IMG/VR virus record: IMGVR_UViG_3300010411_000004
Coordinates: 1-38,866 of that record
Strand: one strand, 5' to 3'
DNA length: 38,866 nucleotides
Source of the DNA: a virus
A program made the position numbers and the translations under genes. Shown in pieces: positions 6,355 through 38,866 of this stretch. The stretch's first letter is position 1; the number at the start of each line of letters is the position of its first letter. Below the pieces are notes generated by a model, which was not told the origin of the DNA, made no database searches, and saw nothing but the letters and a program-made list of their open reading frames with translations.

Positions 6355-7872
6355 TTAAGCCGCAACGCCAAACACTGTAAAGCGTTCCGTTTCAAAGAGC
6401 ATCATGGGTTCGTCTAAAATCGGTTTGGGTCGCCATTCTGGCACATTAGACGAACCGGGCAGGTTCACCGTTAATTCCCAACGATTTGCAGAGCGGTGTA
6501 TTCCTTTGACGTAGGTGGTGATGAGCTGTCGCTGGTCTTTCGGATTCCCTTCTGCCGCGTCGATGAGTTTGCTGATGTTTTTGAGGCGGAGGGCAAAGCC
6601 GATGATTTCTTCTTCTACTTCTTTGGATGGGCCGCAACAGCTCTCGGCGGCTGCCAGCTGGCCGGTGAGCCGGTTGGTTTCTGCGGTGGCCTGTGCCAGT
6701 TCTTTGTTCATGAGATCGGCGTTGTCCGCCGTGATGAGTCCGTCGATGAACATGCGGGTGAGCCGTTCTTTTTTGCTTTTCGCGCGGGTGAGCGCCCGGC
6801 GCAGATCGGGAGCTTCCGGCTGGGCGGTGCGGCGTTTTTCGGCGGCAAGGCGGATGCTGTCGACAATGCGGTCGATGTCGGCTTCTTCAAGACGGATGGA
6901 GCGCAGGATGGCGAGCACTTCGGTTTCGAGTTCCGGAGCGGAGGTGCGGGAGCAGCAGGTTTCGCGGTCGGTGCACTGGTAGTAATGATAACGCTGTGTG
7001 CGGCCGTGGGCTGAGGCGGGTGTCATGGCGCGGCCGCAATCGCAGGTGATGAGGCCGGTGAGCAGGTAGGGATATTTCTGCATGGAGGGTCGCGGGGCGT
7101 GGCCGTGTTCGGGGATGATGCGCTGGCAGCTGGCAAATAGATCGGGACTGATGAGCGGTTCGTGCTGCCCTTTGTGTTCCTGACCGGCATAGGGAAGCCT
7201 GCCGAGATAAATGCGGTTGCGCAGGATGTAGAGGACGGTGTTGGTTGCCAGTCCGTAGCTGCGGGCGAGTTCGCGCGGGCCGGTTCCGCCGGCAGAACGG
7301 AGGAATATTTCCCGGACGTGTTCCGCCTTTTCAGGATCCGGAATTAGCCGGTTGTCGCGTTTTCCGGCGCGTTTATAGCCGTAGGGCAGAACCCCGACCG
7401 GCCAGAGCCCTTTGGCGGCGATGGAGTTCATCTTCATGCGGGTGCGTTCGGCGCAGAATTCGCGCTCCATCTGGGCGATGGAGAGCAGGATGTTGATGAC
7501 GCCTCTGCCGGATGGTGTCGAGCTGTTGAGCCCCTGCGCGGTGGCAAGGAGGTGCTTTCCGTTGGCATGGAAGAGTTCGAGGGCATTAACGGCATCGGAG
7601 ATTGAGCGGCTGAAGCGGTCGAGGTGGCGCACCACCAGAGCGTCCCATGTGGCGGAGCCGGATTTGACATCGGCAATGATCTGCATCCATCCGGGGCGTT
7701 TAGACGAACCGCCGCTTTCAAACTCATCAGTGACTACGCCAAGAACCTCCCCTTCCGGATCGGTGGCAAGGACGAAGGCGCGGCACTGTGCGGCCTGATC
7801 GGTGACGGTGGTTTCGCCGCCCGTCCAGCTGGAGCCTTTTGGTGATACTCGGGTGTAGATGAGATATTTCAT
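6355..7872 (-). CDS. Large serine recombinase (integrase)
   Basis: MKYLIYTRVS contains the catalytic Ser motif. VVRHLDRFSRS is present. A recombinase domain is followed by a Cys-rich zinc ribbon (CDCG...YYQC) and a C-terminal coiled coil. The ATG at 7872 is preferred over the 7926 start in the ORF track. Confidence 0.92.
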   Translation of the reverse strand: MKYLIYTRVSPKGSSWTGGETTVTDQAAQCRAFVLATDPEGEVLGVVTDEFESGGSSKRPGWMQIIADVKSGSATWDALVVRHLDRFSRSISDAVNALELFHANGKHLLATAQGLNSSTPSGRGVINILLSIAQMEREFCAERTRMKMNSIAAKGLWPVGVLPYGYKRAGKRDNRLIPDPEKAEHVREIFLRSAGGTGPRELARSYGLATNTVLYILRNRIYLGRLPYAGQEHKGQHEPLISPDLFASCQRIIPEHGHAPRPSMQKYPYLLTGLITCDCGRAMTPASAHGRTQRYHYYQCTDRETCCSRTSAPELETEVLAILRSIRLEEADIDRIVDSIRLAAEKRRTAQPEAPDLRRALTRAKSKKERLTRMFIDGLITADNADLMNKELAQATAETNRLTGQLAAAESCCGPSKEVEEEIIGFALRLKNISKLIDAAEGNPKDQRQLITTYVKGIHRSANRWELTVNLPGSSNVPEWRPKPILDEPMMLFETERFTVFGVAA

Positions 7873-7889
7873 AGGGAAGACCTTAGACT

Positions 7890-8213
7890 TTAGGCTGTAG
7901 GCTTGAGGGTGGAGTTTTTGCCACAAAAAACACGATAGGACACGAAAAGAAGCAGTCCGGCGGTGAAGGGGTCAATGACGGCCCACAGCTCCCGGTCGAG
8001 GTGGATGGGAAGCAGTGGGTTGAACAGGACGGACGTTCCGATTAGAACGGAACGTATCCAGCGCGGCTGAAAGTTCCAATCTTTGGAAAACAGCAGCCAG
8101 AGGGCGCAGGCGGTGACGGCGATGCGCAGCAACTGGTAATAGCCGTAGGGCATGGGTGCCCAGGCCAGCAGAAGCGCGGCGGCTGTGGCGATGGATGGAA
8201 GATGTTTTTTCAC
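7890..8213 (-). CDS. Small polytopic membrane protein
   Basis: The GTG start overlaps the upstream stop (GTGA). It has 3-4 hydrophobic helices and the motif PYGYYQLLRIAV. It is co-oriented with the integrase. Confidence 0.65.
   Translation of the reverse strand: MKKHLPSIATAAALLLAWAPMPYGYYQLLRIAVTACALWLLFSKDWNFQPRWIRSVLIGTSVLFNPLLPIHLDRELWAVIDPFTAGLLLFVSYRVFCGKNSTLKPTA
8074..8088. repeat. TTCCAA-TCT-TTGGAA palindrome, perfect copy
   Basis: Read directly. It lies inside the minus-strand CDS 7890..8213. Confidence 0.9.
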
Positions 8214-15790: not shown

Positions 15791-16492
15791 ATGGGACTGA
15801 ATAAGTGCAAGGGGAATATGTATGACTGGATCACGCACACGCATACCCATTTGGCCGGGCGGTGTCCGCATGAGTGCGTGTATTGCTCCATTCAGGATTT
15901 GCAGAAGCGTTTTCCCAATCTGCCGTACAGCGGGCCGCTGCGGCTGAAGGAAAAAGAGTTCGCCGTGCAGTATGGCACCGGCAAGACGATTTTTGTTGAG
16001 AACTGTAACGATCTGTTTGCCGATGCGGTGCCGCTGGCGTGGATTGATCGGATTCTTGATCATTGTAGCGCGTGGCCCAAGAACGAATATATCTTTCAGA
16101 CGAAGAATCCGCATCGGCTTGCGGCAGGAATTTGGGTTTTTCCTCCCCGCTGCCTGATAGGGATAACGGTTGAGACAAACCGGGATAATGATTTAGGCAA
16201 CGCTCCATCTCGGCCTGATCGGCTTCGTTCGTTTATCCACATTGATTCTGAGTTTAAGACGTTCATCACGATCGAGCCGATTATGGATTTCGATCTGGAT
16301 GAGTTTGTCCGGCTGCTGATTGCGGCACAGCCTGATTTTGTGAACATCGGGGCGGATTCTAAAGGGCACGGGTTGCCGGAGCCTTCGTTCGAGAAGGTGA
16401 TACAGCTGGTGGACGCGCTGAAGGCCGCGGGCATTGAGGTGCGCGAAAAGCGGAATTTGGAGCGGCTCGGTTCGTCTAAACAACCGGCTTGA
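15791..16492 (+). CDS. DUF5131 (phage Gp37/Gp68)-like protein with a CX3CX2C radical-SAM-type motif
   Basis: GRCPHECVYCS is the Cys motif. IFVENCNDLFADAVPLAWIDRIL...IFQTKNPHRL...ITIEPIMD...DFVNIGADS follows the DUF5131 block order as I recall it. Confidence 0.75.
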   Translation: MGLNKCKGNMYDWITHTHTHLAGRCPHECVYCSIQDLQKRFPNLPYSGPLRLKEKEFAVQYGTGKTIFVENCNDLFADAVPLAWIDRILDHCSAWPKNEYIFQTKNPHRLAAGIWVFPPRCLIGITVETNRDNDLGNAPSRPDRLRSFIHIDSEFKTFITIEPIMDFDLDEFVRLLIAAQPDFVNIGADSKGHGLPEPSFEKVIQLVDALKAAGIEVREKRNLERLGSSKQPA

Positions 16493-16523
16493 TTTGTCTT
16501 TCCTTATAGAAGGGTGGTTTTTT

Positions 16524-17738
16524 GTGAGCAACGGACGGTTTCGCGGGCATTTTTTTCAACAGCTGAATCATCAGCGGGTGGGTTTGATGGCGCAAGGGCT
16601 TCCGGCCGTGGAGAGCGCCGTTTTTTTGAAGGCGTTGCTGCTGGTTGGGCTTTCCCGCCAGCAGTTTGATTTTACGGATGGCAGCTTGTCGGTGTCCGGT
16701 AAGCGGATGACGGCGGATGAGTTTGCGGGGTGGATTGCCGGTGTGACTCCCCAGGTTACGGCGGCGCGGGCATTGAAGGCGCTGGAGGTGCTTTGCGGGG
16801 CCGGGCTTCTCTCTATTAAAGGAAAGGGGCATTACGTCCGGATTGTGGATTGGGCGAAGGATCAAGGGGGAGCCCCGACGGCCGGGGCAGACCGGATGCG
16901 CAAGATGCGAGATGAGAACCGGCTGGCGGATGCCCGCGGCGCGTTGTCGAAATTCGACGGTACCGTGTTCGAGGCGGATGACCTGATTTATCAGATTCAG
17001 AGTGCGCTGAAGTGCAAACGGCAAATTGCGGGAAAAATTTTAGACGCTTTGGGGGATGAGGGTTTTGTTATGCCCGCCGAGGGTGGAAGGCTGTGCTTGC
17101 GTGTGGGTGTTTCGCCTAAGCCTGCCGCGCCTTCGGCGCTGCATCCCCCCCATGAGAGTGAGGGCGCAATAGCGCGTGAAAGTGAGGGTCACATGATGCG
17201 CCCTGCGGGCGTCACATGTGACAATCATTATCATAATCATAATCACAAGAGAGATGTGAATACATCTCATGATCATGATAGGCGCGCGCCCGGATACGAG
17301 CGCGGCCATGAGAAGAGCGAACCGCCTGCCGGATCGCTTCGCTCTCCGGCAGGTTCCGGGTTCGATGAGAATGATGGGGGGGGATGCAGCGCCGAAGGCG
17401 CGGGGTACCGCGCAGATCGTGCAGACCGCTCAACTGACGGTAAGCGCGGGTTGGATATTTTTTCTGTTCCTGATTCCGATCTGCCTGAGGCGGCCTGCCG
17501 GATTTGCCGTCCGAGCGATTTCGCAAAGTCGAAGGGAATTCTGACTTCGAAGATGATGGGTTTGAGGCGTGTGTTCGGACCGCAGAAGGCGCGGCAGATT
17601 TTTTGCGAAGAAACGGCCGCCGTGCAGACGGATATTCTCTGTCCCGGTGCGCGGGAGTTGCGAGAACCGGCGCGGGAGCTGTGCGCCAGGCTAAACGAGC
17701 GGATGGGTCAACCGCGAAGAAAGGAACGGGTGGCGTGA
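16524..17738 (+). CDS. Replisome-organiser / replication-initiator-like protein
   Basis: GTG 16524 follows AAGGGTGG. The N-terminal winged-helix-like region reads FFQQL...AVFLKALLLVG...VLCGAGLLSIKG. The middle is low-complexity and overlaps an AT-rich repeat island. Confidence 0.6.
   Translation: MSNGRFRGHFFQQLNHQRVGLMAQGLPAVESAVFLKALLLVGLSRQQFDFTDGSLSVSGKRMTADEFAGWIAGVTPQVTAARALKALEVLCGAGLLSIKGKGHYVRIVDWAKDQGGAPTAGADRMRKMRDENRLADARGALSKFDGTVFEADDLIYQIQSALKCKRQIAGKILDALGDEGFVMPAEGGRLCLRVGVSPKPAAPSALHPPHESEGAIARESEGHMMRPAGVTCDNHYHNHNHKRDVNTSHDHDRRAPGYERGHEKSEPPAGSLRSPAGSGFDENDGGGCSAEGAGYRADRADRSTDGKRGLDIFSVPDSDLPEAACRICRPSDFAKSKGILTSKMMGLRRVFGPQKARQIFCEETAAVQTDILCPGARELREPARELCARLNERMGQPRRKERVA
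17157..17290. other. Candidate origin of replication inside the initiator gene
   Basis: Direct repeats AGTGAGGG at 17157 and 17181. 12-bp palindrome GTCACATGTGAC at 17211..17222. Four hexamer repeats (ATCATT ATCATA ATCATA ATCACA) at 17224..17247. Inverted repeat GAGATGT/ACATCTC, then ATGATCAT, then GGCGCGCGCC. The region is locally AT-rich in a GC-rich gene. Confidence 0.4.
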
Positions 17739-24093: not shown

Positions 24094-25095
24094 ATGCTTA
24101 AATTTATTCTTGCGATGTTTTTTCCGCTGTTGCTTGGTTCGGTTCGCTATGTTGGCGAAGACGGAGGTGGTGATGGCGGCGGTGACGGCGGAGCTGGTGG
24201 TGATGGTTCCGGTGACGGCGGCGGATCTGGGGGTGATGGTGGCGACGGTTCTGGTGGCGTGATTAATCATGGCGGTGGAGCGCATAGCCGGGAGCTGAAT
24301 CCGGACGGTGATCGCAAACCTGCCGGTGGCGACGGCGCAAAGCCGTGGTATGAGACGGCCGGGCTTCCAGCTGAATTACTGACGGACAAGGACAAGGAAT
24401 ATAAAACACTGCCTGATTTCGTGAAGGGGGCCCAGAGCGCCCGCCAGCTGGCGGCATCCAAAGGGATTCCATTGCCTCCGAAAGACGCTACGCCCGAACA
24501 GCAGGCGGCCTTCAAGGCGGAAGTGATGAAGCATTTTCCGGATCTGCCGATGGCGCCGGAAAGCGCGGACAAGTATGAAATTCCGATGTTCAAGGATTCC
24601 GGTCTGGCGGAGGGTCGGCAGAAGGCGATTAAAGAATCGTTCCATAAGGCCGGTCTGAGCAATGCGCACGCGGCGGCGGTGATGGATGTGTATTCCGAGC
24701 AGGTTGCTCAAGACATTGCTGAAATTCAGGCGCAGGTTGCCGAGCAGCGCAAGGTGACGGAAGCCGAGTTGAAGCAGGCATGGGGTGCTGAATATGCAGA
24801 CCGCAAGGCCGGGATCGACCGGATCGGCGCGCGCTATCCTGAACTGATGGAAGTCATGAAAGCGTCCGGTCTGGATGGCCGCAAGGACTTCAATGAGATG
24901 ATGGATGAAGTGGCACGCAGTGTTCGGGAGGATCATCCCGGCGGATCGGGTCGCGAAAGTGCGGAGTCGGTAGACGGGCAGATTAAGGATCTGCGCGAAA
25001 AAATCAAGAAGACGGAAAACTCGCACGAGCGCAGTAAGCTGATTGAGCAGCAGGGTGCTTTATATAAAAAGCGCGAAAAACTGCGCGGGCGATAA
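24094..25095 (+). CDS. Scaffolding protein (putative)
   Basis: RBS TAAGGAG. It lies between the portal and capsid genes. It has a Gly/Asp low-complexity tract and a long helical, charged C-terminus. The N-terminus is hydrophobic (MLKFILAMFFPLLLGSV). Confidence 0.7.
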   Translation: MLKFILAMFFPLLLGSVRYVGEDGGGDGGGDGGAGGDGSGDGGGSGGDGGDGSGGVINHGGGAHSRELNPDGDRKPAGGDGAKPWYETAGLPAELLTDKDKEYKTLPDFVKGAQSARQLAASKGIPLPPKDATPEQQAAFKAEVMKHFPDLPMAPESADKYEIPMFKDSGLAEGRQKAIKESFHKAGLSNAHAAAVMDVYSEQVAQDIAEIQAQVAEQRKVTEAELKQAWGAEYADRKAGIDRIGARYPELMEVMKASGLDGRKDFNEMMDEVARSVREDHPGGSGRESAESVDGQIKDLREKIKKTENSHERSKLIEQQGALYKKREKLRGR

Positions 25096-28215: not shown

Positions 28216-30797
28216 GAGTTTTCCGGCATAATCTGAGTGGCGGTGTGCTTGGAGCGGACCTGCATTACCGGTCTGATCTGGAGCATTACCACAAGGGAAA
28301 TCTGGTGCAGGAAAATTTCCTACCGACGCCCTATGGCGGTGTGATGCGCCGTCCTCCGTCTGAAAAGTTGATGGAGCACGGACAGGTTACGGTTGAGGCG
28401 GTGGTTTATTCTCCAGAAGCGATTCGTTATTTTGACTTCATTTATGACCGGGATGCGCAGTATGTGGCGGCTCTGATCAGTTATGCGGCGGACGGGCATG
28501 ATTCATGGAGCCGGTTTGAAATTTTTGATACGGAAGGCACGCTAAAAGACACGGTGGATTGCGACTATGCAGCGCTGAACTTTCATGAACTTGCCGCCAA
28601 ACAGCTAAACGATGTGATGTATCTGTCGCACAACGGCTATCCGTTGAAGAAGCTGGTGCGTAACGGGGATGATAATTGGGGGATTGAAGATGCGGTGATG
28701 AAAGGCGGTCCGTTTCTTCCATGGAATGTGGATGAGACCACGCTATACGTCGAAAAAGAGGCATATGATGCTGGAGTGACGTATGCGGCAGGCGATGTGG
28801 TTCATTCAGGTGTAGATGATGTTTCTGTAACTGCCGCCGCTTATGTATTTTGGTATAGCGTACGCTTTGGATCAAGAGATCGTTACACCCGGTCGTTTTA
28901 CTTTCTTCGTCTAACCATTGGAGTTCATACTATTTTAGTGGGAGATGTTGTAAAAGTTTCAGGATTTTCCGGAGAAGCGTATCCAATTAATGGCATATAT
29001 TCGGTAGAGCGCATTGGTACTGGCTATATTGAAGTAAACACAGGAAGATCAACCGATAATCAAACCTATACATGGGTTAATGATTACCCACTTCCAACAT
29101 CGTTTTCAGATGAATCAGTTGGAAAAAATGGCGGGGATCAGTTTTTTGTTTCTATAAAAAATGCCAACACTGGCAATGCGCTTCCTGTGGCTCCGGCCAT
29201 TGAAACAGATTGGTGGCGCAGGACATCGAATCCCGGCGAACTAACGCTGAAATCGTCTGATGATCTATTCACCTCGGACAATATCGGGCAGAAGCTTTTT
29301 TGCGCGGTAAATATTGCGCAGACGTATGATGGGGTTTTTGATGCTGTTGGAGAAAATTCCGACCCAGTTGCGTATAGCAATGGGGCGGTTACGTTGCGCA
29401 CGGAAGGCGGTGTTTGGGGCGGGATTTTGGCCCTGCAGAAGAGTGTGGACGGCGGGGTGACATGGGAAACCATTGGTGTGATCAATGGCGGCGGCGGCAA
29501 TCACAACGGAGAGATTACGCGAGATATTGAAGAGCCGCTGGTTGTGCTGCGCGTGCTGATGCAGACGTATGAGACGGTGACAGGCGGAACAAATTGTAAG
29601 TGGCAACTGGAGTTTCCGCAAGGCACTCCGTTTATTGGAACCATCACGGCGGTAACGGATGAGCGGACGGTCACAGTGAGTCCTGAAACGGCGCTGACGA
29701 AGCTTTTCCAGACAAAGAACTGGAAGCTTGGGGCATTCAATGAGGCCAACGGTTATCCGGGCGTTGTTTGCATCCATGATGAGCGGTTGATTTTGGGTGG
29801 ATCAAAGCTCCAGCCGTTCATGGTCTGGGGCTCTGCCGTGAATGGATGGGATAATTTCGCGGATGGCGTGCTGGAAACCTCTCCGATTGCCATTCAGGCC
29901 AATGCTGACCGGGCAACGCGGCTCTGCTGGCTGGCGAGCAAAGGGGAGCTGCTGTTCGGAACGGACTTCAATGAGTATTCCGCCGGGTCGCGCGATTCAG
30001 ATACCATCATGAGCGGGGTGAATCCTCCGAAAATTCAGGTGCAGAACTCCTACAGCTCCGCACCGTTGCAGGCGCTGCTGATTGGTGAAGATGTAATTTT
30101 TGTGCAGAGCGACTATAAGACGCTGCGAAGCATGGCCTTCAGTGATGCGAAATGGGGTTATGCCGGTCAGAACATGACGATTTTCAGTCCGGACATTGCG
30201 GGCAGCGGCTTCCGCTGGCTGGCGGTGCAGAAGAGCCCGTTCCCGGTCATTTGGGCGGGCACGGAAGATGATGATCTGATTTCGTTCACCTACGACAAAG
30301 AAAGCAACATTATGGGCTGGGCGAAGCATCCGCTGGCCGGTGCGGATGTGGTGAGCGGCTGCATTATTCCAACCCTTGGAAACGACACGCTGTTTATTTG
30401 CACAAAGCGCGGAGACACGTTCCAGATGGAACGGCTTTCGTATGACAACCAGGTGTTCGCGGATGATCAGGGCGGCACGGATGAAACTCTGACTTCTTTG
30501 ATTCAGCCGACCAGTCTGGTGCAGGGGCCGAATGCGCTGGAGGATCCGCGCTATCGGATCACGAAGGTTTATCTGTACGTCAAGGATTCGCAGGGCGGGG
30601 AGGTGAGTCTGGATGAAGGCGAAAACTGGACGCCGATTGAATATGATGATGATGCGCTGTTCACCGGTAAGCGGGAGGTGTTGATTCAGTCCGGCACTAC
30701 CGAAAAGGCCCCTTTGCAAATCCGCACCTCTGGAACGAAACCCTTTAACCTGCTGGCGGTCGGGATCGATATTGACCGTCAAACCACAAAGGATTGA
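28212..30797 (+). CDS. Tail tubular protein B (T7 gp12-like nozzle)
   Basis: 861 aa, positioned after the tubular A gene with an ATGA overlap. The N-terminal LSGGVLGADL...NFLPTPYGGVMRRPPSE parallels gp12 LKGGISQQP...NGWSSETEGLQKRPP. Confidence 0.82.
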   Translation: MRVFRHNLSGGVLGADLHYRSDLEHYHKGNLVQENFLPTPYGGVMRRPPSEKLMEHGQVTVEAVVYSPEAIRYFDFIYDRDAQYVAALISYAADGHDSWSRFEIFDTEGTLKDTVDCDYAALNFHELAAKQLNDVMYLSHNGYPLKKLVRNGDDNWGIEDAVMKGGPFLPWNVDETTLYVEKEAYDAGVTYAAGDVVHSGVDDVSVTAAAYVFWYSVRFGSRDRYTRSFYFLRLTIGVHTILVGDVVKVSGFSGEAYPINGIYSVERIGTGYIEVNTGRSTDNQTYTWVNDYPLPTSFSDESVGKNGGDQFFVSIKNANTGNALPVAPAIETDWWRRTSNPGELTLKSSDDLFTSDNIGQKLFCAVNIAQTYDGVFDAVGENSDPVAYSNGAVTLRTEGGVWGGILALQKSVDGGVTWETIGVINGGGGNHNGEITRDIEEPLVVLRVLMQTYETVTGGTNCKWQLEFPQGTPFIGTITAVTDERTVTVSPETALTKLFQTKNWKLGAFNEANGYPGVVCIHDERLILGGSKLQPFMVWGSAVNGWDNFADGVLETSPIAIQANADRATRLCWLASKGELLFGTDFNEYSAGSRDSDTIMSGVNPPKIQVQNSYSSAPLQALLIGEDVIFVQSDYKTLRSMAFSDAKWGYAGQNMTIFSPDIAGSGFRWLAVQKSPFPVIWAGTEDDDLISFTYDKESNIMGWAKHPLAGADVVSGCIIPTLGNDTLFICTKRGDTFQMERLSYDNQVFADDQGGTDETLTSLIQPTSLVQGPNALEDPRYRITKVYLYVKDSQGGEVSLDEGENWTPIEYDDDALFTGKREVLIQSGTTEKAPLQIRTSGTKPFNLLAVGIDIDRQTTKD
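30367..30381. repeat. TTCCAA-CCC-TTGGAA palindrome, perfect copy
   Basis: Read directly. It lies inside CDS 28212..30797 (codons IPTLGN). Confidence 0.9.
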
Positions 30798-30798
30798 T

Positions 30799-31461
30799 AT
30801 GGGACTCTTTTCTTTATTTCTGAATCCGTTTCTCCATTTGGGTGTGTTCGTTATTGATGATGCAATCATTATCGGGCTGATGATTGCGGCGGCGGCCGCA
30901 ACGGCCGCATCGACCGCGATGAGTTATATGGCGCAGAAGGAGGCCGGTAAGCAGGCCGGATATAATGCAGAGTATAACGCCAAGCTTGAAGAGATGAAGG
31001 CCGAAGAGGAAGCGGCCCGTCGTGCGCAGCAGGAACGGCAGGAACGCAAAAAATCACGGATGCAGCGGGCCTCCATCGAAGCGGAGTTTGCAAACAGCGG
31101 TCTGCTGATGACCGGAACGCCCACTTTTCTGCTGGAAGAGCAGGCCAAGGTGGATGAACTCAACACACTGGAAGGAAACCGGATTGTTGAGACCGGCTTT
31201 ATGCGGTCGATGGAGCGGGCTTCTCTAATCCGCCAGCAGGGTCAGTTTGATAAAGAGATGGCTAACTATGGCGCCACAACGACGCTGGTAAAAGGAGCCG
31301 GATCGTTGGCGATGTCGGCGGCCTCGTTTGGGGCGGCGGGCGGATTTGGAAGCGGAGCCTCTGCCGGTGGATCCGGAGGAACGGTTGTTTCCGGCGGCGG
31401 TGGTGGAGCCGGGATTAACAATGCGTCGTTTGGCGGGAATTCTCTGTTTGCAGTGGCTTAA
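30799..31461 (+). CDS. Internal virion protein (first of three)
   Basis: ATG 30799 lies 1 nt after the previous stop. It has a hydrophobic N-terminus, a coiled-coil region and a Gly-rich C-terminus. The position corresponds to T7 gp13/14. Confidence 0.7.
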   Translation: MGLFSLFLNPFLHLGVFVIDDAIIIGLMIAAAAATAASTAMSYMAQKEAGKQAGYNAEYNAKLEEMKAEEEAARRAQQERQERKKSRMQRASIEAEFANSGLLMTGTPTFLLEEQAKVDELNTLEGNRIVETGFMRSMERASLIRQQGQFDKEMANYGATTTLVKGAGSLAMSAASFGAAGGFGSGASAGGSGGTVVSGGGGGAGINNASFGGNSLFAVA

Positions 31462-31475
31462 TTGGGGGTGAGTTT

Positions 31476-33053
31476 ATGGGCCGGATACCGATTGATTTGA
31501 GAGTGGACTACAGCCAGCGCAATCCGGAACCGACTTCGGTACCGGGTGATTTTGGCATGGGGCGTTTCCGGGCGGTGCAGGAACGAGCGGCGGTGATTGG
31601 CAAGATCGGCGGGCAGGTGGCGGACATTGCCACGGAGTATGCCGCCAAAAACAAGCAGGCCGATCTGCGGGCGGATAATCTGGCGTTCAATACGCAGTTG
31701 CAGTCCATCCAGTCCGATGCGTCTCAGCGGGCATCCCAAACCGATGATCCGAATGAAATCCGGCAGATTTGGGACGAAGCGCACAGCCGGATTGGCAGCT
31801 GGATAAGCGGTAAGAATGAAAAGGGTGTGCCAAATATCCGCTGGAACGATCAGCGCGGCGAGATGATCAGCGCCGGGGATGCACTCAAGAGCGGATTCCA
31901 AACGTCGGCCGAGCGGCGTATTGCCGAGGTGGGAAAGCGCAACAGCAACGCCAAAGCGATGCAGGCGCGTTATGACGGAAAAATGAGCGGGAATCCTGAC
32001 GGGATTATTCAGGGCGTCACCGTCATGCGGGAAAACGGAACCTATACGGCGGAAGAGGCTAAAATTCAGATGCAGGCCGATTTTGTTGAAATGGATATGA
32101 CGGTTGCCAAAAACAACATCGTTGCCATTGAGGGGATGGAGCCTGCCAAGGCGCTGGCGGCTTCGCTGGCGTTTGAAAAAGCCATGACCGTTAAAGAGAA
32201 AGACGGGAAGTGGAGCGCGTTTGAACACCTTCCGGATGGAAAGCGGTCTGATTTTGTGAATCAGGCGAAGAAAGCGGCGGCTGACTCACAGACGCGGTTT
32301 AAAGCGCAGCAGGCGGCTGCGCAGGCGCAGAGCAATGGGGCGGTGGTGGACTTCTTTGTGCAGAACGGCAGGGCTCCTACAGCATCGGAGCGCGCCGGTA
32401 TGGGATTGACGGCAGAAACAGTCCAGAGTTTGGAAAGCGGGCAGATTGAAAAGATCAGTCCGGAGCTGGAAGAACCGGCGGCGCTTCAGTTGCGGCAGGA
32501 AATGCTTGGATATAATCCGGCGGAGGATGTCGGGCGGGCGCAGCAGTTGGGTTGGGCGCGGCGGATTGAAGGATTTACTGATCCAGGCGTTAAGAAATTT
32601 CTGCGGGATAATTTGGAGCGCGCAACCACGACGGATGCAAATGATGTTGATAGTCGGGTAAAAACGCAGATTGAGGATGCGCTGGGGAAGGACTTTAAAA
32701 CCGGATGGGGGCATGGCTGGAGCAAAGACGAAAAGCTTATTCAAATTGATCTAGAGAAGTCGGTCTATGATCAGTGGGTAAAGAAAAATGATCCTTCTCC
32801 TGTTGAGCGTCTGCAATATACCACGACGGGGCGGTTTGCTGATTTAAAGAGAACGGATGATCTTCAGCGGTTCAAAACGACGCTTCAGCGGTCGTTTGCG
32901 GCTCCGGCGGAGTCTGGCATTGAGTCGGTGCGGCAGAAGGCGCAGGGGCAATATTCGCGCGGAATCATCCGGCAGATTGTCGGGGTTCGTCGGGTGAATG
33001 GCGTAGTGGTCGAGCGGGTGTATGACGACGGCACGCGCGAAGCGGTAAAGTGA
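31476..33053 (+). CDS. Internal virion protein (second, gp15-position)
   Basis: 525-aa helical protein between the first internal protein and the giant ORF. Confidence 0.7.
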   Translation: MGRIPIDLRVDYSQRNPEPTSVPGDFGMGRFRAVQERAAVIGKIGGQVADIATEYAAKNKQADLRADNLAFNTQLQSIQSDASQRASQTDDPNEIRQIWDEAHSRIGSWISGKNEKGVPNIRWNDQRGEMISAGDALKSGFQTSAERRIAEVGKRNSNAKAMQARYDGKMSGNPDGIIQGVTVMRENGTYTAEEAKIQMQADFVEMDMTVAKNNIVAIEGMEPAKALAASLAFEKAMTVKEKDGKWSAFEHLPDGKRSDFVNQAKKAAADSQTRFKAQQAAAQAQSNGAVVDFFVQNGRAPTASERAGMGLTAETVQSLESGQIEKISPELEEPAALQLRQEMLGYNPAEDVGRAQQLGWARRIEGFTDPGVKKFLRDNLERATTTDANDVDSRVKTQIEDALGKDFKTGWGHGWSKDEKLIQIDLEKSVYDQWVKKNDPSPVERLQYTTTGRFADLKRTDDLQRFKTTLQRSFAAPAESGIESVRQKAQGQYSRGIIRQIVGVRRVNGVVVERVYDDGTREAVK

Positions 33054-33071: not shown

Positions 33072-33085
33072 ACGGAGATTGAGGC

Positions 33086-36000
33086 ATGAAATTACCCGAA
33101 GGATTTGAGCCCGTTGTTTTACCCAAAGGATTTGAACCGGCGACGGCGGTGGATCAGCCCGATAGCAGTCCGGTTCCAGTGGCGGGCTGGGAGCATTTCT
33201 ACAAGTACGCCAAAAGCGGAAAGTATAATCCGGCGGAAGAGCGCAGCGGGTTTGTGCTGGGCGCGATTGAGGCGATGGGGATTGATGTGGGCGGTGTGCA
33301 GGATTGGACTCCGGAGCAATACAAAGAGCGCGATGCGCTAGAGATTGGAAGCCAGTTCACTCCTGGCGCGCCGCGGGCAGTCAGTCCGTTTGAGCAGATT
33401 TCAAAGACGGCTTTCGGGCGCTCGATGAGCATGGAGGATGCGGAGAAGGAACTGCTTGGGCGCATGGCGAAGATTTATGATGAAACACCCTTGCAGGAAT
33501 TCAACCGGCAGGATGTGCAGACGCAGCAGGATCAGGCGGCAAAAAGCGAAAACAAGCGCCGCAAATTTGGCCGGCAGACGGATGCCGGTCTGGGAACCAA
33601 TGAGCCTCGCCTGAATATGCCGGGGGTGGACTATACGCAGTTCACGAAGGATCAGCTTCCGCTTCAGCCTGCCGATCAGCCGGGCATGGCCGATGCGGTG
33701 GAGCGCGAGCGGATCGATCTGCTGCAGAAGTCGAACGGCGATTTATTCAAGCTGGCGCAGGGACAGCTGACGCGCAAAGAAGAGATGATTGGTCAAAGCA
33801 TGATCAATGCGGCGCGGGTCGGAAATGACGCCCTGCAGGATGTTGTGAATGCGCATGCGGATACCCTGCTTGAAATGGATTCGGATAGCTGGAGCTGGAT
33901 GCGGACGTATGTGATGACACAGATTCCGGCAGAGCAGGCAAACTTTGCACAGCGCATTCTTCCGTCGGCCACAGCGCAGCTTTCCAATCGTTGGAAAAAT
34001 ACCATTTATTCAGCCAAAACGCTGGGTGTAGACATGCTCGGACTGTCGAGCGATGCGGAGCGGATCGGGCGGGAGTCTGAAAGCCGTTTCCAAGGTTTGG
34101 AACTTTTTGACGAAGCGGGCAAGGTGCTGCCTGATCATGAGGAGAAGTTGCGCGAGATCATTCGCAAAGAGGTGGATGCAAATCGGATTGAGGGCGGGCT
34201 GGACAAAGCCTCGCGGCAGAAGATCGAGGATTATTATTTTCAGAACTTTTCAACGGTCATTTCTCCAGCGATGCGGCAGGCGAAGCTCGACCGGCTGAAA
34301 TACGGAGCCAAGGCGCTGGCGGATCCGCAGTATAATCAGCTTGACGGGTGGCAGGAATTAACGCTTTCGGCGATTGGTACCACGGTGGACATGGCAGCGC
34401 TGGCGCTGGTGTCGCGGATTCCAGTGGTCGGGTTTGGTCTGACGGTCGCCAGCACCTATGGCAGTTTTCAGGGTGATCTGGAGCAGAGGCTGGTGTATCA
34501 GAACGACATGCCGCTCTCTCAGGCGCGTCTGCTTTCCGGAATTGCGGCGGTTCCGTATGCGATGACGGAATACTCGCAGGCGTTCCATTTGGGTAAGGCA
34601 CCGAGTCTGCTGCCGTTCATCGGCGAAAAGAACGCCCCGCGCATCTTTATGCAGGCATTTGGCAACTATTATCGCCGGGCGGTCTGGCCGGAACTGCGCG
34701 AAGAGTACATTCAGGCGGGCATTGAATTTGCGGCCATGGAAACCGCGCGTGTTTTTTGCGATTCCAAAGGGATCACTTTTGATCAGAATATCAAAAGCGC
34801 GGTCAACGATGCGGTGCAGGCGACGTTTATTATGCCATTTGTAACAGGATTTGGTGGATTTGGTGTTAGTGCTGGCAAAGCAATCGGAGATGGGTCTTTG
34901 CGGTCGTTTATTCCTGAAGAACTGCGGCAGGCTGTGCGCGATGTACGCAGTCCGGTAGATGTCTATGAATCGGCGCAGAAGGCGCGGCGGGCGGTGCGGG
35001 CAATGGATGAGCTGGGAACGCGGCCAAATCAGTATCCGGCGAAGCTGACGGAAGCCGTCCGGCTTCTTGAACAGCAGGGGGAAGGAACGAAACCCGGCCA
35101 ATCGGTCATCACTCCGAAGCAGAATCCAGACGGGACTTGGGTGGATGTTGCTGAAAACTCTGAAGCACAGCTGATGAAGACGCTGGCGGAAGAGGGCTAT
35201 GAAGATCCGGCGAATGCGTTGGATGGTATTCGGGCGCAGATTCAGCTGGAGGATGCGGTGCAGGAACGGATTCAGGCCGGGGTGAAGCAGTACCAGGATC
35301 AGCTTTCTGCGCAGCTCGATCAGAATGATGACACGGATGTATCCGTTGGCCCGAAGATGGGGCTGGTGCAGGGGGCCATGCAGACCTATGGCGATGCGCT
35401 GGGTGTCAACACAGAGGTTTACAGCACGCAGGAAGAAGCGCTGGCGGCGCATCCGGAGCTGAAGGTTGCCAATGGTGAGAAAATCAAGGCCGTCAATCTA
35501 GATGGACGGCGGATTGTGATGGTGGAAGAGAATTTGACGGATTCCAAAGATGCTATGAGCCAGTGGTGGCACGAGGCGGGCGGGCATCGCGGTCTGGACA
35601 TTAACCCGAAGGCGCAGCGCTTCCTGGACGGTGTGAAGGATGAGCTGGGGATTGACTTCATCAAAAGCCAGATTCCGGCGTTTTATCACAATCAGTCGGA
35701 TGCTGAGATGGTGGGTGAATATCTCTCGCGGCTGGTGGGGCGTGCCGGGCAGAGCGGCGAGCTGGGCGCAACGGAGCAGGAAAAGGGCGTTTGGCAGCGT
35801 TTTAAGGATTGGGCGGGCACAGAGCTGGGGCTGGATATGCAAGAGAACGTGGCGGCGCGTAGCGTGGCGCGCACGGCCAAAGACATTCTGGCCTATGCCA
35901 AGGGGTTCGACGGACGTTATCCGGACGGTATGACCGTCAAGCTGGAGCGCAAAGCCTACACGCGGCAGGGCGGGCAGTGGGTCAACGAAAAGGGCCGGGC

Positions 36001-38866
36001 GGTCAAAGATGCTGGACTGGTCGAAACGATCCAAGCGGAAGCGGATGCGGCCGCGCAGAAGACGGAAGACAGAAGACGGAAGGCGGCAAAGGTAGAGGCC
36101 GATAAGCGGATTCAGGCGATGGCCGATTCCGATCCGATTATCAAGATGGTTTTGGAAGAGGGCGGAGTGCAGATGCCGGAAATGAAACCCGGCCAGCCGC
36201 TTCCGGACGAATATGCGGCGATTCCGCAACGCTTTCGCGGGAAGAAAGGGGCCGGGTTGGCGCTTGATGAGCTGGCCGATCAGGTCGCCGCGCTCAGCGG
36301 GCAAACGGCGGATTATTCCACGGATGAACTGCGGGCATATCTGGAAGCCTTCGAAACAAAGGCTGAAAAAATCATCAATCAGCAATCGTCGGCCGGAAAT
36401 TCCAGCGAGGAACAGCTGTTGGCTGACCAGCTGGAGCGCGGTGAGATTTCAGAGTCTGAGTTTCATGCGGCCATGAATGAGCTGACAAGGTTCTCGGTGG
36501 AAGAGATGGCCCAAATCGGACCGGATAAATTTAATGAGCTTCTGGCTGATCCGCGCTATTCCATCGCGTGGGCTAGTGATCGATGGCAGGATGCAGTCCG
36601 CAATAGTATTGCCTTTGAAGATAAGCGGGTGCGGGTGTATAACGTCGACCGTGAAGGGGACGCACTCTATGAAACCCAAATCAAAAAATCTGGCAAGTGG
36701 GCGACCGTCCAATACGCGGACAATCTCGACGAAGCCAAAAACCCGGAGCCGCAAGTTACCGGATTTATCAATACCCTTGCCGACTACATCCAAGCCAAAA
36801 AGACCCTCGGAAAAGAGTGGTACGGCTCACAAGTCGCCGCCGGTTTATCCGACAACGACATTTTCGGGCTGGTTGACGGAATAGATCCTGCATCCGTTCG
36901 CATCAACTTCATTCCTCCGCCAACGTATGGCGACACGCCCACGCGCGGAGTTCAACGTGACGGTAAAATCATTGATATTTCTGAGGGGCGAAGTTCCTCC
37001 CATCTTTTAGCGGCCGAAGGTGACGTGCGGTTTTCTGTTACGCGGGAACAGTATTCCGCTCTGAGTCCGATTAAGTTGACCGGCAATGAAATCGGGGAAT
37101 TCAGCAACACCGGTAAAAAGTTTTCGGAACTGTTTGCCACAGTTGAGCAATGGGGAACAGAAAACGGACTGTTCGGTGCGCATCCTACGCCAGCACTTGG
37201 ACATGATGTGACCATTTCCAGAAACCATCTGCGCGGGAGCCTATCCAAAGGCGGCGCCGTCAATAAATTCCAGATGGTGGCGGCTCTTTCGGAGCTGTTG
37301 CAACATGCGATTTTATTGGAAGAGATGCCGAATTATAAAAACCCGACCACAACGGATTACATTCTTGCGGCAAAGGCAGATGTTGCCGGTGTTGTTTACA
37401 CGGTCGGGCTGGTGGTTCAAAAAAATTCAGGCGGACGGTATTTTTACAACCACGAGATGGCTGTAGAAGAAAAGGACGGCCAATCTCCGCCCGATCTCCC
37501 AAGAATCTCAACAAGGAATCTGACAGCGGAGGGCCGTCCAGAAGTCAATAAGATACTCCAGAAGCATCTGGGTGTCAACCGGGACAATACGATCCGTTTT
37601 TCGGTAGAGCAGGCGGAGGATCCGTATCAGGCAACGGCGGTTCATATTGCCTATCGGATTTTCAATGGCGATTTTCAGGTGAAACGGATTGCCAAGGGGA
37701 AGAACAAGGGGCAGATGGTGGCCCGCACGGAAGAAGAGCAGGCGGCTGAGGTATCGGCATTGCTGAAGAGTCAGGGGCTTTCTCCGTCGAAACCGGCGGT
37801 TCAGCAGGTGCTGGAGGATGCGCGGGCAGTAGCGCAGCAGGCGATTGTTCGTAAGCAGAGCCTGAAGACAAATCAGAGCGTTTCGAAGTTTATCCGCGAT
37901 GAGTCAACCCGGCAGTGGTTTAACCGGCAGGTGGAGGGGATCTACCGCGAAGGGCAAACCGGCGGTGCGCTGGCGCAGCAGGCGTTTGATGAAATTCGCC
38001 GCCAGCAGGAACGGGCGATGCAGACGCTTTTGACGACGCGCCCCGGCATGGGAACCGATGAGCTGCGTGAGTACAATCTGGATGTGCGCCGTCTTCTGGA
38101 CAAATTGGAACTGGAAGAAACGAAGCGGACGGTGAAGCCGAAACCGCTGACGGATCAGGAATTTGAGCAGGCGGTGGACGCGGGCACGCTTCCGGATTTT
38201 GGGGTGGATGGTTCGACCGGCACGATCTACAAGGCGGAAGTGGACGATTTCCTTTTCCGCATGAAGACAGCCGTGGTGCGTAAGCTGACTAAAGAGGGGG
38301 TTTTGGATCCCAAAAAAGACCTTCTCAAGTCGATGCGCTCGCCGGTGGCCGTGGCGGAATACCGCAAGACGCTGCAGAACGTGCTGGGGCATACCGCCTC
38401 TGAGCTTTCGTATGGATTCCGGCGCGATGTGCTGGAGCGCAAGATTCGCGGTCTGGATGATGCGAAGCTGATGAGCACATTGGATTCCAAGGCCGGAACG
38501 ATGTTGCAGCAGATGTTTGACGCGCGCGATCAGGAAACGCTGGATACGCAGGTAGAAAAGGTTTTCGAACTGACGAAACAGTTTGCCGGCCGCCTGAAGT
38601 ATCGGCTGGCGGAAACTTCGCAGGCGGTGCAGGTGCGGGCACTTAAGATGTTCCGGCAGATTCGTGGGGAAGCCTCTGGCAAGTCCGGCGTGCTTTTGAT
38701 GGAGCCGGATGCGGTGCAGGAGGAAATGGAACAGCTTCGCAAGGCGTTCGATGAGCCGGAGCGCTATGCTCCGGACGGTGCGGATGTGGCGGAGTGGGTG
38801 CAGGATGCGATTGACCGCTATAACATGTTGGATCGCTTTGGCGCGTTCAAATACAAGAAGGCAGCG
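33086..38866 (+). CDS. 5' part of the giant internal virion/ejection protein (about 2,681 aa in total with 100..2364)
   Basis: ATG 33086 follows GGAG. I translated the frame by hand and found 1,927 codons with no stop up to the window end. It is absent from the ORF track because it has no stop in the window. It contains a duplicated N-terminal LPEGFEP/LPKGFEP, TM-like helices near 34360..34870, and many coiled-coil regions. Confidence 0.9.
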   Translation, partial: MKLPEGFEPVVLPKGFEPATAVDQPDSSPVPVAGWEHFYKYAKSGKYNPAEERSGFVLGAIEAMGIDVGGVQDWTPEQYKERDALEIGSQFTPGAPRAVSPFEQISKTAFGRSMSMEDAEKELLGRMAKIYDETPLQEFNRQDVQTQQDQAAKSENKRRKFGRQTDAGLGTNEPRLNMPGVDYTQFTKDQLPLQPADQPGMADAVERERIDLLQKSNGDLFKLAQGQLTRKEEMIGQSMINAARVGNDALQDVVNAHADTLLEMDSDSWSWMRTYVMTQIPAEQANFAQRILPSATAQLSNRWKNTIYSAKTLGVDMLGLSSDAERIGRESESRFQGLELFDEAGKVLPDHEEKLREIIRKEVDANRIEGGLDKASRQKIEDYYFQNFSTVISPAMRQAKLDRLKYGAKALADPQYNQLDGWQELTLSAIGTTVDMAALALVSRIPVVGFGLTVASTYGSFQGDLEQRLVYQNDMPLSQARLLSGIAAVPYAMTEYSQAFHLGKAPSLLPFIGEKNAPRIFMQAFGNYYRRAVWPELREEYIQAGIEFAAMETARVFCDSKGITFDQNIKSAVNDAVQATFIMPFVTGFGGFGVSAGKAIGDGSLRSFIPEELRQAVRDVRSPVDVYESAQKARRAVRAMDELGTRPNQYPAKLTEAVRLLEQQGEGTKPGQSVITPKQNPDGTWVDVAENSEAQLMKTLAEEGYEDPANALDGIRAQIQLEDAVQERIQAGVKQYQDQLSAQLDQNDDTDVSVGPKMGLVQGAMQTYGDALGVNTEVYSTQEEALAAHPELKVANGEKIKAVNLDGRRIVMVEENLTDSKDAMSQWWHEAGGHRGLDINPKAQRFLDGVKDELGIDFIKSQIPAFYHNQSDAEMVGEYLSRLVGRAGQSGELGATEQEKGVWQRFKDWAGTELGLDMQENVAARSVARTAKDILAYAKGFDGRYPDGMTVKLERKAYTRQGGQWVNEKGRAVKDAGLVETIQAEADAAAQKTEDRRRKAAKVEADKRIQAMADSDPIIKMVLEEGGVQMPEMKPGQPLPDEYAAIPQRFRGKKGAGLALDELADQVAALSGQTADYSTDELRAYLEAFETKAEKIINQQSSAGNSSEEQLLADQLERGEISESEFHAAMNELTRFSVEEMAQIGPDKFNELLADPRYSIAWASDRWQDAVRNSIAFEDKRVRVYNVDREGDALYETQIKKSGKWATVQYADNLDEAKNPEPQVTGFINTLADYIQAKKTLGKEWYGSQVAAGLSDNDIFGLVDGIDPASVRINFIPPPTYGDTPTRGVQRDGKIIDISEGRSSSHLLAAEGDVRFSVTREQYSALSPIKLTGNEIGEFSNTGKKFSELFATVEQWGTENGLFGAHPTPALGHDVTISRNHLRGSLSKGGAVNKFQMVAALSELLQHAILLEEMPNYKNPTTTDYILAAKADVAGVVYTVGLVVQKNSGGRYFYNHEMAVEEKDGQSPPDLPRISTRNLTAEGRPEVNKILQKHLGVNRDNTIRFSVEQAEDPYQATAVHIAYRIFNGDFQVKRIAKGKNKGQMVARTEEEQAAEVSALLKSQGLSPSKPAVQQVLEDARAVAQQAIVRKQSLKTNQSVSKFIRDESTRQWFNRQVEGIYREGQTGGALAQQAFDEIRRQQERAMQTLLTTRPGMGTDELREYNLDVRRLLDKLELEETKRTVKPKPLTDQEFEQAVDAGTLPDFGVDGSTGTIYKAEVDDFLFRMKTAVVRKLTKEGVLDPKKDLLKSMRSPVAVAEYRKTLQNVLGHTASELSYGFRRDVLERKIRGLDDAKLMSTLDSKAGTMLQQMFDARDQETLDTQVEKVFELTKQFAGRLKYRLAETSQAVQVRALKMFRQIRGEASGKSGVLLMEPDAVQEEMEQLRKAFDEPERYAPDGADVAEWVQDAIDRYNMLDRFGAFKYKKAA
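33982..33996. repeat. TTCCAA-TCG-TTGGAA palindrome, perfect copy
   Basis: Read directly. It lies inside the giant ORF (codons LSNRWK). Confidence 0.9.
34088..34102. repeat. TTCCAA-GGT-TTGGAA palindrome, perfect copy
   Basis: Read directly. It lies inside the giant ORF (codons FQGLE). With flanks it is the reverse complement of the 33057 copy over 19 nt (TTCCAAACCTTGGAAACGG). Confidence 0.9.
38768..38866. repeat. Terminal redundancy copy 2, identical to 1..99
   Basis: Same 99-mer as 1..99. It lies in frame inside the giant ORF. Confidence 0.95.

Follow-up and report, generated by a model that had tools for sequence, protein, structure and literature searches.

A giant gene across the circular junction

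The stretch of DNA analysed here (hereafter, the window) is 38,866 nucleotides (nt) in length and corresponds to positions 1 to 38,866 of the IMG/VR virus record IMGVR_UViG_3300010411_000004. It contains one giant gene that is divided between its two ends. Bases 1–99 are identical to bases 38768–38866, and the genome closes to a circle of 38,767 bp. A frame that opens with an ATG at 33086 on the + strand runs to the last base of the window and then, passing through the repeat once, reaches a TAA stop codon at 2362–2364. The joined open reading frame (ORF) is 8,046 nt in length, encodes 2,681 amino acids (aa) and takes up 20.8% of the genome. In window coordinates, its 5′ part (aa 1–1927) lies at 33086–38866 and its 3′ part (aa 1928–2681 and the TAA codon) at 100–2364, both on the + strand; the 99-nt terminal overlap (38768–38866, no strand) falls within the ORF and marks the circular closure. 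The mechanical ORF list omits this gene because the frame runs off the end of the window, and displays an ORF of 781 aa at 19–2364, with a spurious GTG start, together with antisense shadow ORFs. Joining the ends corrects the annotation for one fifth of the coding capacity of the genome, which had been concealed by the window boundary.

The start of the gene is well defined: an in-frame stop codon lies at 33080, the preceding gene ends at 33053 and a GGAG sequence is found 8 nt before the ATG. Both termini match those of homologues, with MKL(P/A)EGFEP at the N-terminus and ...YRD.SKA..NY.E at the C-terminus. An open frame of 2,681 codons cannot have arisen by chance in DNA of 55% GC. It would nonetheless be an artefact if the circular join were chimeric, or if a stop codon or frameshift that splits the gene had been lost in assembly, as the ORF exists only if both window ends join and it is known here from assembled sequence. 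Against this, five independent full-length homologues from other samples (proteins P0001–P0004 and the protein of L003, an independent IMG/VR contig) are uninterrupted and colinear over the junction, with conserved termini. BLASTP alignments to P0001–P0004 are unbroken across the junction codons (aa 1895–1927), and L003 aligns at the DNA level in one high-scoring segment pair of 4,141 bp that extends from window position 37578 through the window end to position 2896. The junction is thus real and not an assembly chimera, and we regard an artefact of either kind as extremely improbable. As the repeat falls within a gene and measures exactly 99 nt, it presumably reflects the assembler overlap of a circular or permuted genome rather than a physical terminal repeat.

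At its extreme N-terminus, the protein carries the tandem LPEGFEP/LPKGFEP (aa 3–18; 33092–33139). The duplicate is kept in P0001–P0003 and L003, and may serve in docking or targeting.

Conserved frames and an exchangeable slot

Comparison with homologues by BLASTP divides the protein into an N-terminal frame (N-frame), a slot and a C-terminal frame (C-frame). The N-frame (aa 1–1138; 33086–36499, +) is 49–52% identical to P0001–P0003, 40% identical to P0004 and 65% identical to L003. Identity in the C-frame (from about aa 1503/1508 to aa 2681) is 45–76% among homologues, and its first part (aa 1508–1927; 37607–38866, +) is conserved in the same comparison. Similarity to the five relatives ends at aa 1138–1167 (1141 in P0004) and restarts between aa 1262 and 1503, at a point that varies with whether the relative shares the cassette that contains the LPD3 domain. 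In P0001 and L003, similarity breaks exactly at aa 1138 and 1503, on RFS motifs.

Three copies of the tetrapeptide RFSV punctuate this region on the + strand: the first at the end of the N-frame (aa 1135–1138; 36488–36499), the second at aa 1315–1318 (37028–37039) and the third at the start of the C-frame (aa 1504–1507; 37595–37606). Between the first two lies cassette A (aa 1139–1314; 36500–37027, +; GC 0.52), which is a near-orphan and contains an inner RYSI (aa 1157–1160; 36554–36565). A word-indexed search of 5.8 billion proteins returned no homologue of cassette A; within the family, just aa 1157–1222 match one member (P0018, 45% identity), and the match begins at an R-[FY]-S in both proteins. 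Cassette B (aa 1319–1503; 37040–37594, +; GC 0.50) holds a Pfam-recognized LPD3 domain (PF18798; aa 1365–1454, 37178–37447; E = 7.5e-8, 33 bits against a gathering score of 27). A literature search found nothing on the function of LPD3, and the cassettes had no match among PDB sequences. When ten sub-segments of the protein were searched against Pfam at E 10, the only match was a weak SHOCT-like one to a 26-aa stretch before the first RFSV (aa 1108–1133; 36407–36484), at E = 1e-3 and 19 bits, below the Pfam gathering score of 27.

The same slot is filled differently in relatives. It contains LPD23, MuF_C and ART-PolyVal domains in P0001; an unnamed module, ART-PolyVal and LPD3 in P0002 and P0003; MuF_C-like and ART domains in L003; and a single 155-aa module in P0004. 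Across 13 diverse family members, the cargo includes ddrB-ParB, ART-PolyVal, LPD1/3/5/23, RadC, PBECR1/5, MuF_C, Zeta toxin and a PRTase. The frames of L003 are 65–76% identical to those of the window protein and its cassettes are entirely different; the slot has no DNA similarity to L003, and its GC content is 0.50–0.52 against 0.57. These differences indicate that cassettes are exchanged horizontally between close relatives. This architecture of two frames and one slot appears to be undescribed in the libraries and literature that we searched.

A motif at the cassette boundaries

The RFSV tetrapeptides belong to a motif that recurs throughout the family. Among 110 family proteins with lengths of 1,500 aa or more, RFS[VIMLA] occurs 104 times, compared with 15.9 times in shuffled sequences (6.5-fold), and the tripeptides RFS, NPD and RYS are enriched 4.3-fold, 4.4-fold and 3.1-fold, respectively. 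The consensus, (F-D-x-x)-N-[GP]-D-[IVAP]-R-[FY]-S-[VIL]-[AS], lies in a linker-like setting that is rich in Gly, Pro, Asn and Asp. In an all-against-all BLASTP comparison, 9.1% of homology-block endpoints fell at most 12 aa from a motif, compared with 2.2% (standard deviation 0.34) under random placement; conversely, an endpoint lay within 12 aa of 148 of the 168 motifs, as opposed to 73 (maximum 89) for random positions. The motif is degenerate in L003 (RFLV, R-SV and RFSM). Among the other virion proteins none carries it, save for a single loose RYL/RYS in the portal and tubular A proteins.

Codons of the motif vary synonymously (AGG/CGG/CGT/CGA, TTC/TTT and TCG/TCT/TCC), and the constraint is therefore on the peptide; a recombination signal at the DNA level, which was considered for the junctions, was rejected because of this variation. 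We found no mention of an NPDIR[FY]S junction in the searchable literature, and a motif that marks cassette boundaries across the family appears to be undescribed in the libraries and literature covered.

Gene order and neighbours

On the + strand, the structural genes run in the order small terminase, large terminase, portal protein (PF12236, T7 gp8 type), scaffold-like ORF, capsid protein (Phage_capsid_2, T7-type), tail tubular protein A, tubular protein B, a gp14-like internal virion protein (phrog_418; 30772–31461, +), a 525-aa ORF without a family match at the gp15 position (31476–33053, +) and the giant ORF. The giant gene starts 32 nt past the end of the preceding gene, and the next gene follows 50 nt past its stop codon on the same strand. 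Orthologous neighbours of the gp14-like gene in relatives match PF24072 (T7_gp14). In the close relatives L001 and L002, such a T7_gp14 protein of around 170–190 aa is followed by a protein of 519–538 aa and then by the giant protein. Even in relatives in which the C-terminal part is just 29–34% identical to that of the window protein (L010, L011 and L012) the arrangement is similar: L011 and L012 have T7_gp14 matches and a 615–629-aa protein before the giant, and L010 is arranged in a similar manner, with no Pfam match. In total, this gene order was found in seven loci retrieved for six other relatives. Because this order recurs in close and distant relatives, the giant gene, as judged by gene order, fills the gp16 slot across a broad podovirus clade. 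The 525-aa ORF bears no resemblance to the gene upstream of P0067, a relative of 4,737 aa.

A large serine recombinase/integrase (phrog_95, E = 1.6e-81; 6355–7926, − strand) shows that the phage is temperate, despite the T7-type structural module. Relatives are located in bacterial contigs, and for one relative NCBI names a Kiritimatiellales metagenome-assembled genome as the source. A temperate phage with relatives in bacterial contigs might be taken to encode a product that never enters the virion and merely lies beside structural genes, such as a toxin expressed from the prophage, a superinfection-exclusion factor or another polyprotein. We consider this very unlikely, as the gene is tightly packed with structural genes on one strand, its position between gp14/gp15-like genes and the two genes downstream is conserved across distant relatives, and the protein shares a domain with gp47 of phage phi24B, for which presence in the virion has been proven.

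The two downstream genes (158 aa, 2415–2891; 448 aa, 2901–4247; both +) have no family match. Their counterparts occur at the same place in L001 (161 and 444 aa) and L002 (161 aa), and they are probably parts of a tail fibre or spike.

Other features of the neighbourhood are as follows. The scaffold-like ORF in the interval between portal and capsid genes (333 aa; 24094–25095, +) has a Gly/Asp/Ser low-complexity run of around 45 aa and a charged, coiled-coil-like C-terminal half, and yet gives a weak match to a PHROG annotated as 'protease' (phrog_458, E = 2.6e-5). With the TTG start assigned to it in the list, the gp14-like ORF reaches back into the end of the tubular B gene, and its true start may be the ATG at codon 10; the protein has a hydrophobic N-terminus and a Gly-rich C-terminal tail. 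In L007, the gene for P0067 (1187–15400) adjoins ftsH, rpsP, rplS and hsp20 genes, which places it on the border between a prophage and the bacterial chromosome. In L012, a gene with a SocA_Panacea domain, which is associated with toxin–antitoxin systems (16146–16763, −), adjoins that of the 3,469-aa relative P0045. No RNA polymerase was seen among the genome ORFs scanned.

Hydrophobic regions and a C-terminal anchor

A conserved, hydrophobic and Gly-rich region (region I) lies in the N-frame at aa 425–597 (34358–34876, +), with Kyte–Doolittle peaks at aa 425–454 and 576–597. The score reaches 1.81 at aa 436–454, and the Gly-rich hydrophobic stretch at aa 576–597 is conserved. The region I module is detectable in 74 of 111 family proteins. 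Near the other end of the protein, a strongly hydrophobic helix (aa 2585–2607; 2071–2139, +), with a score of 2.34 (aa 2585–2603), is a candidate membrane segment. The initial annotation had placed helices resembling transmembrane segments at both ends of the protein; the hydrophobic segments are present, but not at the extreme ends, as two are internal to the N-frame and one is around 75 aa from the C-terminus.

This last helix forms part of a C-terminal all-alpha anchor (aa 2178–2681; 850–2361, +). Of the 111 family proteins, 108–110 contain the last approximately 1,000 aa, at a constant distance from the C-terminus. With aa 1928–2681 as query, an exhaustive phmmer search recovered 957 representative clusters, 167 of them at E ≤ 1e-30, and the last approximately 500 aa are almost always found at the extreme C-terminus of proteins of 2,000–5,000 aa. 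AlphaFold2 (AF2) modelling of the C-terminal 512 aa from a 42-sequence alignment yielded a confident all-alpha structure, with a predicted local distance difference test score (pLDDT) of 82.7 and a predicted template modelling score (pTM) of 0.75. A Foldseek search of this model against the PDB returned only insignificant matches to membrane transporters (best E = 0.28). Against BFVD, 36 matches were obtained at E ≤ 1e-3, mostly to sub-chunks of long proteins from uncultured phages; the annotations of several of these proteins include LPD, ART-PolyVal, methylase, helicase or nuclease domains.

The anchor belongs to no Pfam or PHROG family; the whole protein matched no PHROG family and only noise in NCBIfam. 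Searches of 50,697 GenBank phages by tblastn, with both halves of the protein and with the anchors of two distant relatives, gave no match. The word-indexed homologue search with the anchor gave 2 matches, and a first scan of GTDB genomes provided no confirmed relative; alignments of wider scope contained no sufficiently conserved pattern that could serve as a query. The anchor family appears to be undescribed in the libraries and literature consulted.

A zincin-like domain and possible cleavage

The N-frame also contains a zincin-like HExxGH...E domain (aa 768–939; 35387–35902, +), in which H829, E830, H834 and E878 are conserved in 91–98% of 47 homologues; HExxH and HExxGH forms both occur. 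We interpret the pattern HExx(x)H...E as a putative Glu-zincin peptidase signature. A search of the HExxGH region against PDB sequences gave no match. The domain is homologous to one in phi24B gp47, which the domain model matches at E = 1.2e-21 (HEIIH...E), and it is common to the polyvalent proteins P0006 and phi24B gp47.

Zincins usually prefer a hydrophobic residue at the P1′ position. The hydrophobic residue that follows Ser in R-[FY]-S-[VIL] fits this preference, making the motif a concrete candidate cleavage site. Iyer et al. have put forward the idea that polyvalent proteins are divided into their functional units by a metallopeptidase that they themselves contain (PMC5512222). We tentatively suggest that a cut after R-[FY]-S, made by the zincin-like domain of the protein or by another protease, would free the cassettes. 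The motif might instead be a structural boundary, for example a short strand or hinge that closes modules or eases unfolding in the tail channel, in a protein that acts uncleaved. This is a serious contender, although we would place it somewhat below even odds. It accords with the linker-like context of the motif, with its presence in many members without a detectable HE..H domain and its rarity in the HExxH subgroup, and with the precedent of N4 virion RNA polymerase (vRNAP), ArdC and TraC1, which according to Iyer et al. are delivered as full-length polypeptides (PMC5512222). The genome has no evident prohead protease, the 333-aa ORF being scaffold-like, which also favours an uncleaved protein. 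However, a motif of four residues that is constrained at the protein level and is repeated past every module, in the manner of cleavage sites in viral polyproteins, seems over-specific for a linker, and its hydrophobic residue after Ser would suit a zincin.

Two further possibilities were considered. That the RFS motif strictly accompanies the HExxxH variant was not accepted, since phylogeny confounds the comparison, and a prohead protease as the cutter is unsupported.

Proposed function

We propose, with a probability of roughly two in three, that the product of the giant ORF is the largest of the internal (ejection) proteins of a temperate podovirus and, at the same time, a polyvalent protein. 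It would qualify as the latter because repertoire domains are combined in one large polypeptide that is encoded among virion structural genes. The initial annotation had already suggested an ejection protein that carries cargo. Its placement of the gene at the gp16 position of a T7-type order is borne out by the structural-gene neighbours and their repetition in relatives; the extra central modules that it described correspond to LPD3 in the window protein and to ART-PolyVal, MuF_C, LPD23 and LPD3 in the same slot of orthologues; and, in agreement with its failure to find RNA polymerase, methylase or helicase motifs, Pfam detected no such domain. Gene position and polyvalent cargo domains together support the interpretation. 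The gp16-type assignment stood as to position and not as to homology: the protein is only a positional analogue of T7 gp16.

The protein would probably be packaged in the virion and ejected, with the N-frame and C-frame forming the part that is packaged, ejected and inserted into membranes. As the cassettes lie between two hydrophobic regions, as does gp16-C in T7, they may be delivered to the cytoplasm, a step for which we judge the chances to be about even. The slot cassettes would reach the host together with the DNA and, early on, counter its functions or defences, as has been proposed for polyvalent proteins generally.

Several observations weigh against this interpretation. The phage is known here from sequence alone, and its membrane segments were defined by a Kyte–Doolittle hydropathy scan alone. 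A profile of the family revealed no homology to T7 gp16 among all PDB chains; hhalign comparisons with a seven-member gp16 alignment gave probabilities of 0.5% for the N-frame and 0.2% for the C-frame; and the Foldseek search with the anchor model found no gp16 fold in the PDB. The zincin-like domain matches no Pfam family even at E 10, MPTase-PolyVal and all peptidase families included. The AF2 model of aa 740–1520, built from a 6-sequence alignment, is poor (pLDDT 45.5); the cassettes were left unmodelled, and the Foldseek matches to the PDB were meaningless, with no fold match. Pfam recognizes a single polyvalent domain in the window protein, LPD3, which has no known function, and cassette A has almost no relatives. 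The motif follows the peptidase-like domain only loosely: proteins of the HExxxH subgroup contain 2.26 motifs on average, those of the HExxH subgroup 0.35 and those without a detected domain 1.55, and phi24B gp47 holds the zincin-like domain yet has no RFS motif.

An alternative is a purely structural ejection or core protein, in which the central modules are spacers or adaptors to the host envelope. The gp16 slot position, the long helical frames and the lack of a known activity for LPD3 and cassette A would suit such a protein. We nevertheless find this improbable, because in close relatives the same slot holds ART-PolyVal domains and nuclease domains of the MuF_C/PBECR type, and wider relatives carry ddrB-ParB, Zeta toxin and RadC, which are enzymes with cytoplasmic targets. 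The rapid exchange of cassettes between frames that are 65–76% identical is, moreover, typical of conflict genes.

A bolder extension of the ejection reading, which we advance as a speculation that is more likely wrong than right, is that the protein is a self-processing delivery polyprotein. Each cassette would end in N-[GP]-D-[IV]-R-[FY]-S and be cut before the next hydrophobic residue, with either the HExxGH zincin-like domain within the protein or an activity of the conserved C-frame making the cut; both frames would stay behind as a membrane conduit, and a phage-specific cocktail of effectors would be released into the cytoplasm. If this were true, the approximately 1,000 anchor clusters would represent a major class of podovirus ejection proteins that has gone unrecognized and into whose slot cargo can be plugged, and proteins of choice could be delivered by reprogramming that slot.

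A 2017 prediction cast polyvalent proteins as injected 'first-strike' weapons, and the family described here displays a simple, repeated design for them, with two conserved frames in a T7-type ejection-protein slot and cassettes that are swapped at a short conserved motif. The junction motif is a candidate cleavage or boundary signal. The anchor domain falls outside Pfam and PHROGs and gave no tblastn match in GenBank phages; with 957 clusters for the aa 1928–2681 query, it could be used to find such proteins in metagenomes, and LPD3 and cassette A are candidates for new anti-defence or host-takeover activities.

Comparison with known systems

T7 gp16, or internal virion protein D, is the inner-membrane and cytoplasmic part of the DNA ejectosome. 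The window protein resembles it in occupying the same slot in the gene order, after gp14-like and gp15-position genes, in presumably being the largest internal protein and in the hydrophobic regions that flank its large central portion; one of these regions lies close to the C-terminus. It differs in being twice as large, in carrying exchangeable cargo modules and in lacking a lytic transglycosylase domain (no Pfam match). An N-terminal lytic transglycosylase is found in the T7 group only and is not universal in gp16-type proteins. C-terminal membrane helices, by contrast, have been called universal in gp16-like proteins, and in T7 gp16 the part between transmembrane helices (TMH) I and II is a cytoplasmic hub (PMC8954989).

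With the polyvalent proteins of phages and conjugative elements (Iyer, Burroughs, Anand, de Souza and Aravind 2017; PMC5512222), the window protein shares its very large size, its location among virion genes, its repertoire domains, its extensive mosaicism between relatives and its embedded HExxH-type domain. In those proteins, cargo is appended to a MuF, N4 RNA polymerase or methylase–helicase core, whereas here it sits in one slot between two conserved frames of around 1,100 aa that are outside Pfam and PHROGs. The words 'ejection', 'internal virion' and 'transmembrane' do not occur in the text of PMC5512222. N4 vRNAP, which Iyer et al. count among the polyvalent proteins with an MPTase domain (PMC5512222), is likewise a giant protein; it is carried in the head of a podovirus and injected along with the DNA. 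In contrast to N4 vRNAP, the window protein has no RNA polymerase domain (Pfam, PHROGs and NCBIfam), and is encoded by a temperate type of genome of 38.8 kb with a T7-type structural module. It also differs from the MuF/SPP1 gp7 toxins in having no MuF domain; its relatives carry only the MuF_C (PBECR) module, as a cassette.

The closest parallel is gp47 of phi24B (vb_24B_48; L009 29149–37572), from the 933W-type Stx podoviruses, a protein of 2,807 aa with LPD5, LPD1, MuF_C and LPD38 domains. Its HEIIH...E domain (aa 1508–1650, between LPD1 and MuF_C) matches no Pfam family and is the domain homologous to aa 768–939 of the window protein. The two are similar in that each is a polyvalent protein of a temperate podovirus with this domain. 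They differ in their frames and cargo, and gp47 lacks R-[FY]-S motifs, a strongly hydrophobic segment and any match to the C-terminal anchor. As gp47 has been detected in virions by proteomics and has been proposed to be an ejection protein (bioRxiv 10.64898/2026.04.10.717836), it is the nearest experimentally supported precedent, with one domain shared. As both polyvalent proteins and giant ejection proteins of podoviruses have been described before, the window protein is not categorically new.

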